A stretch of DNA of 64,000 bases from Escherichia coli (GTDB taxonomy: Bacteria; Pseudomonadota; Gammaproteobacteria; Enterobacterales; Enterobacteriaceae): the NCBI RefSeq assembly GCF_017348835.2, contig NZ_CP071375.1, one strand, 5' to 3'. This document shows, in pieces, positions 6,001 to 12,000 of this stretch. A program made the position numbers. Positions within the stretch are counted from its first letter, which is position 1. Each line of letters opens with the position of its first letter.

Positions 6001-9000
6001 GACGGATGTTACAAAAAATGCAGCGTATGGCGTTGAGATAGAAAGTCTGGTGCTGGAGATAAATGCACCGGCAGCATAATAAAAAAAGAGCCAGCGACTG
6101 ACCTGAAAGAAGACGCTGGCTAAAAGGCCTTATATGTTTGTAGAGACTTATTTTTCACAGACAGCAATGATGCCTGTCAATATATTATCAATATGCGGAT
6201 TGTTTCAGTTACAGATGCTTTATTAAGGAAAAAAACAGCCAGCACTGACTTTCGGTGGAGAGGTGCTGGCTCAGAAGGATAGTTGGATTTCACATGATAC
6301 TTATGCCTGGCGGTATATTTTCTGACAGACAGTGACGGGTGTTGTCAAGATATTGTGTCATTTATAACCTGAATCAGGGGGTGGCCGGAATGTTATCTGG
6401 CATTTTTAGCAGAGCCTGAATGCCATAATCACGGCTCCCGGAGTTGGCCGTCAGTGGGTGACACTGGCGGCTTTTTTGTTTTTCTTTACTTTCATTTTCT
6501 GTCGGCGGTGACGGAGACATACATCAGATGGAAAAAATCACAACAGGTGTGTCATACACCACGTCAGCGGTGGGGACGGGATACTGGTTACTGCAGCTGC
6601 TGGACAAAGTCTCTCCGTCCCAGTGGGTGGCAATAGGTGTGCTGGGAAGTCTGCTGTTTGGCCTGCTGACGTATCTGACTAACCTGTATTTCAAAATCAG
6701 AGAGGACCGTCGTAAGGTGGCGCGGGGAGAGTAGTCGATGAATAAACAATACGAACTGGTTGTAAAATGAATATTTCTAACTGAAAAAACGTTCCATGAG
6801 GTAAGAAAAGGTCACAGGCAATCAATAACAGGACGTGATGAAAGACCCTTGCATTTGTGCGCTTTCTCTTTAGATAGCAGCAGATACTGAAAATCTGAGT
6901 TGTCGGGGAGTCAGGGATACAGCTGTGCAAGAGTTGGTCATTGTGATTCCATTGAAATCCTGTATGCCATGAAGGGCAGGATTTTATGGCTACCTGAGCT
7001 TTGGTGATAGTAAGTTGAAAATTCGCATTTTTTGCTGACATGCGTAACGAGAATCCCATAAGCAGGGAGGACTTAATTCTTCATTAACCCATGCGTTGAT
7101 ATTATGTTTCAGCCGTTGAAGCATCAGCGGTGTTAATGTTGTGGTAATAATATCCAGCGTTTTATGTGAGATCTTACCGTAAGGGTCTGCAAGAATGCTG
7201 CTTGTTGCTTCGTTATTATCTGCCATCAGAAGAAGTAACTCTGATTTAACGTTTTCTGTCATTAGTTGTAAAAATCTTCTGCGCAAACTTTCTTTACTGT
7301 TCATTTATATGGCTTCATTTGTTGTAATCTGCTGCGTCTCAAGGGATATGTTTATGAGAGCGACCATGAGTGTTGGATTATATACCTAACATATCAAGGG
7401 ATTAGAAATCGATAAATCCCCATGAACGAAAAAATAAAATACGGCCTGTCGGCTGCCGTTCTGGCGCTGATTGGTGCAGGTGCTTCTGCGCCTGAAATCC
7501 TCGACCAGTTTCTGGATGAAAAGGAAGGTAACCACACCACGGCATACCGTGATGGTGCGGGGATCTGGACCATCTGCCGTGGTGCCATTCTGGTGGATGG
7601 TAAGCCTGTTATTCCTGGCATGAAGCTGTCAAAGGAAAAATGCGACCGGGTTAATGCCATCGAACGTGACAAGGCGCTGGCATGGGTGGAGAAAAACATC
7701 CGGGTGCCGCTGACCGAACCCCAGAAAGCGGGGATCGCGTCATTCTGTCCGTACAACATTGGCCCCGGTAAGTGCTTCCCGTCGACGTTTTATAAACGAA
7801 TTAATGCAGGCGATCGAAAAGGTGCCTGTGAGGCGATTCGCTGGTGGATTAAGGACGGTGGCAGAGACTGCCGTATCCGTTCAAATAATTGCTACGGTCA
7901 GGTCTCACGGCGTGACCAGGAGAGCGCGCTGGCGTGCTGGGACATCGACAGATAGCAGAATATTTTCCTGAAAAATGACGTTGGCCAACGCGGGTGGATA
8001 ACACGAAATCCTGAAAACTGGTAAAACCTAAGTGAATAAAAGTAAAAACCCCGTTTGTTGGCAGCAAGCGGGGTTTTGTGTTTTCTGACCTTGAGTAAGG
8101 CAAGGGAGAAATTATGGGTAGGGAGGTACTTTCCCTGTGAGGAAGTATAAAAGATTCTTTCTGAGGTTGTCCATTATGAAAGGCATTGAAGTGGAGACGC
8201 CAGCCAGTCTGGATTTAACAAGAGCGGCAGCTTTTGCCATTCGTATTGTGGCCATTGCTGTTCTGGTCTGGGCAATCCGTTGGTGGTGATATGAACCGTG
8301 TTCTGTGCGTGGTTATCATTGTCCTGCTGGTGGCCTGTGGTGCGCTTAGTCTGGGGCTGAATCATTACCGTGATCACGCCATCATCTACAAAGAGCAGCG
8401 CGATAAAAAAGCCAGTGAGCTGGAGCTGGCGAACGCGACAATTACTGATATGCAGGTACGCCAGCGTGATGTCGCTGCACTTGATGCCAGATACTCGAGG
8501 GAATTAGCCGATGCGAGAGCTGAAAATGAAACTCTGCGTGCTGATGTTGCCGCTGGTCGTAAGCGCCTGCGCATCAACGCCAACTGTCCAGGCTCCTTGC
8601 GTAAAGCCCCCATCACCTCCGGCGTGGATAATGCAACCGGTCCCCGACTGGCAGAAGCCGCTGAACGGGATTATTTCATCCTCAGAGAACGGCTGATGGC
8701 AATGCAGAAGCAACTGGAAGGAGCACAGGAATATATCCGTACCCAGTGTATACCGTGATGTTTTGTTATGAAGGTGTTACTGGTAACGTTAAGGTAATTT
8801 AACAAAGAGTCAGTTCCGGACTTTATAGTGTGCTCAGTTCATGGCCAAAAACGATTTCTGTGATAAATATTTTGAATATTATTTACAGGTAAATGGAGTG
8901 GGGCGCATGGATAGAAATATTACAATAGAGTATGAAGTATATGCCCGTATTGTATGGGCAGAGAAGGCAAAAACACGGTAATTCCGTGTGTTGCCATGAT

Positions 9001-12000
9001 ACCTGATTGGCAGAATAGTTGTTTGGTTTTGAGTATATAGTCAGCGTTTTTTGTTCAGTAATTGCCCCCTCAAAAAATAATAAAATAAGGTGATTATTTT
9101 TGTTTATTATTTAGTTTTTTTTGTGTGTTATTTTATTGTTTTTGCGTGGTTTGTTTTTTATTGTTATTTCATTAAGGGAAGGTAAATTCAGGATGGCAGT
9201 CTGTAGATAATCGGAGGTCACTTATGCTACATGATCACGTGGCAGAATGTCTGGAGAAAAAAGGACTGTACCGGAGAGCAGCTGAACGATGGGCAAAAGT
9301 GATGGTACAGCTAAGTGATGACCAGAAAAGAAAAGTGGCGGCACAGAAACGAGCAGAGTGTTTGCGTAAGGCGCGCCGGACTCCGGTTTCACCGGTGAAC
9401 CTGACCGAAATAAAACAAGCGGTCAACAGACTACATTCTGAGTTGGGAATGGGATTTGAAGAGCGGCGGGTATTCCGACGATATAAAGGGACAGGAGAAC
9501 AGAATACGTCCGGAAACGCGCGGTCAAAAAAATGCTAAAAAATATCTGAGAGAGTTATTGCCTGTTACCATAAGAAAAAGCGACTTTAGTGGTCGCTTTT
9601 TGTGTCATATATAAGTCGTTTAAGTAAACCTGTCTGAACAGGTGCTCTGGTCGTGTTTGTCTTTGTTGGGTACAAATTGAGAATATTTTTCATTAATTAA
9701 TCTTCTTCTGCAGGCTTCAATAACCCACGCTGAAAAATTACCTGAACCTTTCAGGTCAAGAGCGATGTTAATTTGTTCAATTATCTGGTTTGGAAATCGG
9801 ATGTTGCGGGTTGTTGTTCTGCGGGTTCTGTTCTTTGATGACATAATGTTGCCCCGTATTCAGTGTTGCTGATTTGTATTATCTGAAGTTGCTTTTACGC
9901 TAATTTGATGCAGATCAATTAATACGATACCTGCGTAATAATTGATTATTTCTCGTGGTTTGATGGCGTACACACATGTCGTGATAAACCTCATGTAGAT
10001 GATAATTATTATCATTTTCGTGGGTCCTTTCCGGCGATCCGACAGGTTACGGGGCGGCGACCTCGCGGGTTTTCGCTATTTATGAAAATTTTCCGGGATC
10101 CATGTCCGGTTTCTCTTCAAGTTAACTATATGAAAAATATAAAAACAGGTCTTCTGTGAACCGGACATGAACAAAAAACAGACATGTAAACCGGACATGA
10201 CCGGTTTTGTTGTGATTGTGAGGTGAGAGTTTTTGCGAGGTGAGGAGTGGCTACGCAGACTGAAGTTGCCAGGCATTTAAGTCTGACCGATCGCCAGCTT
10301 CGCAGATTGCAGAAATTGCCGGGTGCCCCGATATCGAATAAGCGAGGGCAACTGGATCTGGATGCCTGGCGCGATTTTTACATATCGTATCTGAGGAGAA
10401 GTAAAAACGATGTGCCTGATGGCGATAGCGAAGACGACTATGAGGAGAAATTGCTTATTGCCAGATGGGAACTGACAGCAGAACAGGCTGTTACACAGCA
10501 GTTAAAAAATGAGGTGTCAAAAGGAAAACTTATTGACACCGGGTTCTGTATTTTTGCCCTCAGTAAGCTGGCAATGGCGTTATCCAGTACGCTTGATTCC
10601 ATCCCTTTATCCATGCAGCGACAGTTTCCTGATTTAACACCGCGCCATCTTGACCATCTGAAAACCCTTATTGCTAAGGGGGCAAATCAGTGTGCGCGGG
10701 CAGGGGATAAATTACCGGATTTACTCGATGAATATATCAGAGCAACAACTGAATAATATGATGGCTGCCGTTTCGGTTGCGCTGCAGCCTCTGGTCAGGG
10801 TTGTACCAATGACGGCAGTTGAATGGGCTGATCAAAATTATTATCTGCCTAAAGAATCTTCATATGGTGAGGGAGAATGGAAAACGCTGCCATTCCAGAT
10901 CGCCATTATGAACTGTATGGGTAACGACCAGGTTCGCACGGTTAACCTGATTAAATCTGCCCGTGTTGGCTATACAAAGATGTTGCTGGGGGTGGTCGGG
11001 TATTTTATTGAGCATAAATCCCGAAACAGTCTGCTTTTTCAGCCCACGGATTCTGCCGCTGAAGATTTTATGAAGTCTCACGTGGAGGCGACGATTCGGA
11101 ACGTGCCATGCCTGAAAGACCTTTCCCCATGGCTGGGTCGTAAACATCGTGACAATACTCTCACGCTGAAACGCTTTTCATCGGGCGTCGGTTTCTGGTG
11201 CCTGGGCGGCGCTGCCGCCAAAAACTACCGTGAAAAATCCGTGGACGTGGTCTGCTATGACGAACTTTCCTCGTTCGAGCCGGATGTCGAAAAAGAGGGC
11301 TCGCCAACCCTGCTGGGGGATAAGCGTATTGAGGGGTCGGTGTGGCCAAAATCCATTCGCGGCTCGACGCCTAAAATCAAAGGCACCTGCCAGATCGAAA
11401 AAGCCGCTAACGAGTCGGCGCATTTTATGCGTTTTTATGTGCCCTGCCCGCACTGTGGGGAGGCGCAGTATCTGAAATTTGGCGATGAGTCCACGCCTTT
11501 TGGGCTTAAATGGGAGAAGGACAGCCCCGAAAGTGTTTTCTACCTCTGTGAACATCATGGCTGCGTGATCCATCAGTCTGAACTGGACCAGAGCAACGGG
11601 CGGTGGATCTGTGAAAACACGGGCATGTGGACCCGTGACGGTCTGACGTTTTTCAGCGCCCGGGGTGATGAAATTCCGCCGCCGCGCTCCATCACGTTCC
11701 ATATCTGGACGGCGTACAGTCCGTTTACCACCTGGGTACAGATAGTCTATGACTGGCTGGATGCACTGAAAGATCCCAACGGCCTGAAAACCTTTGTGAA
11801 CACCACGCTGGGCGAGACCTGGGAAGAAGCCGTGGGCGAAAAACTCGATCACCAGGTACTGATGGATAAGGTCGTGCATTACACGGCGGCGGTACCTGCC
11901 CGGGTGGTTTATCTGACGGCGGGCATTGACTCGCAGCGAAACCGTTTTGAGATGTATGTCTGGGGATGGGCACCGGGAGAGGAAGCTTTTCTGGTGGATA

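Follow-up and report, generated by a model that had tools for sequence, protein, structure and literature searches.

Here, we report that a gene located between the lysis and terminase genes of a lambdoid prophage, within a 64-kb stretch of Escherichia coli contig NZ_CP071375.1 (the whole of which is referred to as the window), is almost certainly a pchA-type (group 1, PchABC) homologue of the regulator gene perC, carried as a moron-like accessory cassette among the late genes of an Sp4-like phage. An earlier note on this DNA had described an open reading frame (ORF) with a PerC-family motif at this site, and the ORF is present as stated there. Published work already covers the gene, what it does at the LEE1 promoter (LEE, locus of enterocyte effacement), the input from LrhA, and the control by DicF, and we found nothing that contradicts the identification as pchA. 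The gene and its immediate upstream sequence comprise the following features.

9224-9538, + strand: pch coding sequence (CDS), a pchA allele of 104 amino acids in the PerC family, assigned by its Pfam PerC match and its identity to PchA of strain Sakai.
9213-9217, + strand: Shine-Dalgarno (SD) sequence GGAGG of pch, read directly from the sequence, six bases 5' of the ATG.
8759-9223, + strand: AT-rich upstream region of 465 bp (promoter and/or 5' leader), which always co-occurs with pch.

The pch ORF opens with an ATG at 9224 and closes with a stop codon at 9536-9538 on the + strand. A profile search for the PerC family, named beforehand in the earlier note as the refuting test, returned Pfam PF06069 (PerC) with E=4.4e-44 and 149 bits, aligning residues 1-89 of the query with positions 1-89 of the 90 in the model. 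At the level of individual proteins, the product matches PchA (ECs_1091) of the E. coli O157:H7 strain Sakai at every residue (100% identity), differs by one residue from PchB (V6L) and by two from PchC (V6L, V58M), and shows 47% identity over 87 residues (E=5e-28) to the plasmid-encoded PerC of enteropathogenic E. coli (EPEC), for which the comparison sequence was the 89-amino-acid ORF that follows perA and perB on an IncF plasmid of the EPEC type. CDS nucleotides 16, 172, and 183 tell pchA, pchB, and pchC apart (PMC5931665), and the window carries G, G, and C at the corresponding positions 9239, 9395, and 9406, which are the pchA states. The identical protein is recorded in RefSeq as WP_001303878.1, a "PerC family transcriptional regulator", whereas UniRef labels it "PchABC family"; the exact sequence is found on at least 1000 contigs.

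The motif described in the earlier note, EKKGLYRRAAERW, corresponds to residues 11-23 and forms the core of the family alignment. Among 54 aligned family members, R17, A19, and W23 are invariant and lie inside this motif, whereas columns conserved in at least 90% of members include L10, E11, G14, R18, A20, and R22, most of which also fall within it. The window protein carries all of these core residues (L10, E11, G14, R17, R18, A19, A20, R22, and W23). The family as a whole is small, as a set of 1.84 billion proteins yields 82 cluster representatives, and a word-indexed protein search with the window protein retrieved near-identical clusters only.

Examination of the surrounding genes places pch among the late genes of the prophage. 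The order runs from a Q antiterminator through a CPBP protease, a helix-turn-helix regulator, three tRNAs, a SASA esterase, a holin, lysozyme, and Rz/Rz1 to the 465-bp gap, pch, a convergent YlcI/YnfO gene, and the small and large terminase subunits. The features that delimit the cassette on either side, and those at the distal end of the prophage, are as follows.

7422-7955: lysozyme gene.
8234-8758, + strand: Rz spanin (annotated start equivalent to 8291), the left border of the cassette.
8511-8696, + strand: Rz1, embedded in Rz.
9575-9601: likely bidirectional intrinsic terminator, an A-tract, 11-bp stem, and T-tract hairpin located between the convergent pch and ylcI genes.
9620-9844, - strand: YlcI/YnfO (DUF3950) gene, NCBIfam NF041551, with the right border of the cassette near 9700-9710.
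32438-33190, - strand: TccP2-like ORF of 250 amino acids with 47-residue proline-rich repeats.
34123-34210, - strand: tRNA-Ser(tga), at the attachment side of the prophage beside hyaA.

The upstream feature had been drawn in the earlier note from 8759, which is the first base past the Rz stop codon at 8758, and what was called a leader is therefore the entire 465-bp intergenic gap between Rz and pch. The terminator hairpin folds with -14.7 kcal/mol as + strand RNA and -11.2 kcal/mol as - strand RNA, and is nearly invariant among alleles. Gene order, including the gap of ~465 bp, is common to strain PE164, the Sakai prophages Sp4, Sp11, and Sp14, A25, and a further nine assemblies, E. albertii among them. 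Among complete RefSeq genomes there is no exact match to the window; PE164 is 99.8% identical across the first 25 kb, and an O145:H28 genome is 98.5% identical at the distal end. That distal end consists of the TccP2-like ORF, an EspJ-like ORF, and the tRNA-Ser(tga), followed by hyaA. Sakai Sp4 carries pchA together with a tccP2 pseudogene at the equivalent end, and the window phage is therefore of the Sp4 type. The proposal in the earlier note that a TccP-like effector and the regulator together mark a virulence-associated prophage is thus borne out. Beside the TccP2-like gene, in the region 32438-34210 on the - strand, the EspJ-like ORF encodes 132 amino acids and is seemingly truncated.

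In isolated phages that lack pch, homology to the window stops at ~8749 and resumes at ~9697-9710, with lambda also represented on the resuming side. This comparison indicates that pch, its upstream region, and the terminator together constitute an accessory cassette of ~950 bp (~8750-9700). The slot between Rz and cos is filled by bor in lambda-like phages and by unrelated DNA in Shiga toxin (Stx) phages. With regard to the features expected of a moron, the insertion is absent from related phages and has its own terminator, and the sole + strand promoter-like match is at chance level. The cassette is present in 673 of 5426 complete E. coli genomes (~12%), with a median of three copies, and is almost never found on isolated phage genomes. 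Searches with the upstream region located 1876 places in 672 genomes, the best place in each record covering at least 80% of the leader, and the region is absent from pch-less phages. The cassette also occurs in 15 places on plasmids. On plasmid pOkiPb01711_1 (positions 2033-4935 of locus L007), Rz, the leader, and pch lie among insertion sequence (IS) fragments, an NleH remnant, and espS, an arrangement indicating that the cassette has been mobilised outside an intact prophage.

The function of the protein is known from work on the identical sequence, for which activation of LEE1 and ler by relief of H-NS silencing is established (PMC4764244, PMC5931665). Pch binds AT-rich DNA and lowers the occupancy of H-NS and StpA at the LEE1 promoter, and activation is wholly dependent on prior silencing by H-NS, StpA, and Hha as well as YdgT (PMC4764244). 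PchA, PchB, and PchC each activate a ler::lacZ fusion at least four-fold (PMC5931665), and full expression of ler and the LEE, as well as adherence, requires the group 1 pch genes (PMC4456613, PMC6265319). Upstream of Pch, LrhA activates pchA and pchB (PMC4456613), and it is through the LrhA route that butyrate/Lrp, NtrC, and Cpx signals enter. By displacing H-NS, StpA, and Hha at LEE1, Pch de-silences ler and, via Ler, the type III secretion island and non-LEE effectors; the window copy would be expected to act likewise in a host carrying the LEE.

Expression of pchA is also controlled after transcription. In the pchA mRNA the SD is masked by base-pairing to a stretch within the CDS, and under low oxygen the small RNA (sRNA) DicF pairs at that CDS segment, leaving the SD free (PMC7769764, PMC7873438). 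We predicted the corresponding elements in the window copy, taking the DicF sequence from Sakai Sp4 (Rfam RF00039).

9312-9323, + strand: predicted anti-SD segment UAAGUGAUGACC within the CDS (codons 30-34), pairing with 9213-9224.
9271-9328, + strand: predicted DicF pairing region, with the DicF 5' end UUCUGGUGAC on 9317-9328.

A partition function calculated for the full transcript gives a predicted probability of ~0.6 for pairing between 9213-9224 (SD, spacer, and first base of the AUG) and 9312-9323, with ~0.3 for an alternative SD partner at 9381-9387. All ten SD:anti-SD pairs are kept in 8 distinct alleles (80 of 80 cells paired), two of them changing only to a G-U wobble. The best duplex with DicF has a predicted energy of -46.7 kcal/mol, compared with -37.8 +/- 3.3 kcal/mol for shuffled sequences, of which 3 of 300 were equal or better, and the site of the DicF 5' end (9317-9328) overlaps the first anti-SD candidate (9312-9323). 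The predicted pairing of the SD with codons 30-34 and the overlapping DicF site fit the published control of pchA translation, and the window copy therefore probably keeps the DicF cis-element, with the SD held by 9312-9323 and the DicF 5' end falling on 9317-9328. Retention of the modelled pairs across alleles is consistent with this element but is not proof of it.

The most distinctive part of the cassette is the upstream gap, over which RefSeq annotates no feature. At 33.5%, as against 52.4% for the window, its G+C content is the lowest of any 465-nt stretch there; intervals with a G+C content equal to or below that of the gap account for 0.04% of all 465-nt intervals in the 64 kb. The distal part, 8759-9040 (282 bp), is moderately AT-rich at 36.5% G+C, whereas the part nearer to pch is dominated by thymine.

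9056-9190, + strand: T-rich hypervariable core, 50% T and 23.7% G+C.

Within this tract, which holds five T-runs of 5-8, the interval 9090-9170 is 69% T and 19.8% G+C. The earlier description of ~460 bp of extremely AT- and T-rich sequence therefore stands, well outside chance expectation, with respect to AT-richness, but the extreme T-richness is limited to the proximal ~135-180 bp. In order to compare variability along the cassette, 11 distinct alleles were aligned and the mean pairwise difference was calculated for each segment.

CDS: 0.022.
3' flank and terminator: 0.027.
8759-9055: 0.046-0.070.
T-rich core, 9056-9190: 0.196.

The variability of the T-rich core is thus about nine-fold that of the CDS, and in addition to clustered substitutions the core shows indels in the form of poly-T length changes, a 5-nt insertion, and an insertion of ~19 nt in two alleles. 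Substitutions in the CDS are 17 synonymous and 9 nonsynonymous, with an excess at third positions. This pairing of a near-fixed protein and distal upstream DNA with a hypervariable T-rich tract is the one point that is new here, and only mildly so. Its sequence is not the same in the different paralogues, in line with published work in which the pchA, pchB, and pchC copies are reported to differ in both regulation and expression (PMC4456613, PMC5931665), and the tract is the obvious place to seek those differences. One could go further and regard it as a fast-evolving, slippage-prone module whose alleles set a paralogue-specific expression level or signal response, with total Pch dose tuned by the prophage alleles that a strain carries rather than by the near-invariant protein; we offer this as speculation that is rather unlikely to be correct.

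How pch is transcribed can be approached from the same gap. The sole + strand match to a promoter is the following.

8991-9019, + strand: candidate sigma-70-like promoter, TTGCCA-17-AATAGT.

If used, this site would give a U-rich 5' untranslated region (UTR) of ~200 nt. In addition, pch points the same way as the late operon, and no + strand terminator-like site was found in the gap between Rz and pch, which makes read-through on induction plausible, so that late-operon transcription downstream of Q and the lysis genes could also express pch when the prophage is induced. An SOS-inducing drug is reported to raise group 1 pch transcripts; in strain PA20 the increase was ~8-fold for pchC and was not seen for pchA (PMC5931665). 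The AT- and T-rich upstream region, in turn, may serve as a platform for regulators, possibly including H-NS. The element responsive to LrhA may lie ~390-420 bp ahead of the start codon.

Several results weigh against parts of this reading. Sigma-70-like matches in the gap are no more numerous than in shuffled sequence, and the global fold of the leader and early CDS is no more stable than that of shuffled sequence (z = -0.07). At the SD, no compensatory double changes are seen in the SD:anti-SD pairs across the eight alleles, and a second anti-SD candidate at 9363-9389 scores better in a duplex-only calculation. Finally, the LEE is absent from the 64-kb window.

As to what acts on the gap, the suggestion of the earlier note, that it is an H-NS nucleation site silencing pch itself, has a little less than an even chance of being right in our view. 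No stretch of its size in the 64 kb has a lower G+C content, and H-NS covers AT-rich, horizontally acquired DNA at ~440 loci in enterohaemorrhagic E. coli (EHEC) (PMC4764244), so that silencing of pch by H-NS is plausible from composition only. Against this, we found no literature data placing H-NS on pch (the supplements of PMC4764244 contain strains only), and pch is both expressed and needed when the LEE is induced under ordinary conditions (PMC4764244). Furthermore, the high-affinity H-NS motif TCGATAAATT has a single match in the gap, with two mismatches, and a motif scan of the window showed no enrichment.

A second reading, to which we lean somewhat less than we lean away, is that the T-rich tract is transcribed and works as RNA, in the form of a long U-rich 5' UTR to which Hfq, CsrA, or ribosomal protein S1 binds, and is not H-NS-bound promoter DNA. 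The candidate promoter at 8991-9019 lies upstream of the tract and is the only such site on the + strand, several GGA motifs are situated at most 50 nt from the AUG, and reviews mention a "pchA leader region" and Hfq-dependent control by DicF (PMC7873438). However, the promoter match is at chance level, neither a significant fold nor an Rfam match was obtained, and no other part of the cassette is as poorly conserved as the tract (0.196, plus indels), which speaks against a precise RNA fold in it.

It is far less probable that the gap encodes a second product, either a 46-amino-acid protein of family phrog_2157 or a - strand sRNA bounded by a promoter-like site (9106-9077) and a terminator-like hairpin (8989-8973). 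The protein would derive from the following ORF.

8841-8981, + strand: ORF of 46 codons with a full-length match to phrog_2157 (E=2.3e-37), not called in RefSeq or in other assemblies.

Apart from this PHROG match, the first 16 codons of the ORF are invariant among alleles, and promoter-like and terminator-like sites are indeed present on the - strand. Nevertheless, the ATG has no SD, tblastn detects the ORF only where pch DNA occurs, and 5 of the 11 alleles are cut short by a stop at codon 32. Substitutions follow a non-coding pattern, being 6 synonymous and 14 nonsynonymous and distributed flatly over the three codon positions (8/6/6). We rejected the ORF as a gene on the grounds of the stop and the substitution counts, and phrog_2157 is probably an artefact of gene calling, built on conserved DNA that does not code for protein. 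The - strand sRNA and its hairpin (8967-8995) were likewise rejected, as such sites occur at chance frequency and the stem is broken by allelic changes, with three of the four changed pairs disrupted in variant alleles on our reading of the alignment.

It is hardly credible, and at the level of sequence already refuted, that the window gene encodes a PerC homologue which is inactive or functions differently, as PchD and PchE do: PerC-family membership by itself does not guarantee LEE activation, and PchD and PchE have hardly any effect on the LEE (PMC6265319, PMC5931665), but the window protein is residue for residue PchA, whose activation of ler was measured, and its ORF, SD, and terminator are all intact.

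The identification of pchA in this position is of value as annotation only. It marks the prophage as a phage of attaching-and-effacing E. coli that carries both regulators and effectors, and it establishes the copy as a pchA allele in an Sp4-like phage that has not been rearranged.

A number of other features were noted in the window. The prophage tRNA trio identified by ARAGORN consists of Met(cat), which is ileZ in the Sakai annotation, Arg(tcg), and Arg(tct). Immediately after the trio and upstream of the SASA esterase gene is a strong Rfam match to the STnc100 sRNA (138 bits) at 3816-4006 on the + strand, the trio and STnc100 together occupying 3490-4006 (+ strand). Between the lysozyme gene and Rz, at 8040-8085 on the + strand, the lysis cassette contains what resembles an intrinsic terminator, namely a hairpin rich in G+C with a T-run behind it (AAAACCCCG...CGGGGTTTTGTGTTTT). 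An Rfam scan of 7000-11000 detected no family; the only match was a sub-threshold one resembling rimP at 8035-8110, on the opposite strand of this terminator. The large terminase subunit (10671-12656, + strand) is an intact ORF in the window and is annotated as frameshifted in PE164, the closest complete genome. In the chromosomal backbone, cspH is located at 52688-52900 (- strand) and cspG at 53186-53398 (+ strand), the 5' leader of the latter corresponding to the Rfam cspA thermoregulator match at 53030-53452.

The closest known system is pchA of Sakai, from which the 465 bp upstream of the window gene differs at 5 positions, with one more base different downstream of the stop codon. The host prophage Sp4 is similarly lambda-like and shares tccP2 at the distal end, the tail genes, and sodC. 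However, in Sakai the block comprising the holin, lysozyme, Rz, and pchA is inverted between IS629 and ISEc8 (positions 22131-29827 of locus L003), whereas the corresponding block in the window, at 6500-10200, is in native orientation and free of IS elements; in addition, tccP2 is a pseudogene in Sp4, whereas the TccP2-like ORF of the window is open. The inversion uncouples pchA from the late promoter, and a Sakai-type inversion might explain why the drug raised pchC but not pchA in PA20. The pchB (ECs_2182, Sp11) and pchC (ECs_2737, Sp14) loci share the cassette, the slot, and the terminator with the window. Over 141 alignment columns of the T-rich core, pchB differs from the window in 37, pchC in 14, and pchA in 2.

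At a greater distance, PerC from the perABC operon of the EPEC adherence factor (EAF) plasmid belongs to the same Pfam family, carries the LExKGxYRRAAxRW core, and acts on the same LEE1 promoter target (PMC4764244, PMC4456613). Unlike PerC, which has 89 amino acids and is plasmid-borne and encoded last in its operon, Pch is prophage-borne and monocistronic. PerC has no AT-rich leader of its own because its gene comes last in the operon, behind perA and perB. The two also differ in their importance, as EHEC cannot express the LEE without Pch, whereas EPEC can do without perC (PMC4764244). With regard to genomic position, the nearest parallels are bor of lambda and the other morons found between Rz and cos, which are likewise accessory genes lying between Rz and cos/Nu1 with a terminator of their own. 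In contrast to pch, a regulator gene transcribed in the direction of the late operon, bor specifies a lipoprotein and lies on the other strand.

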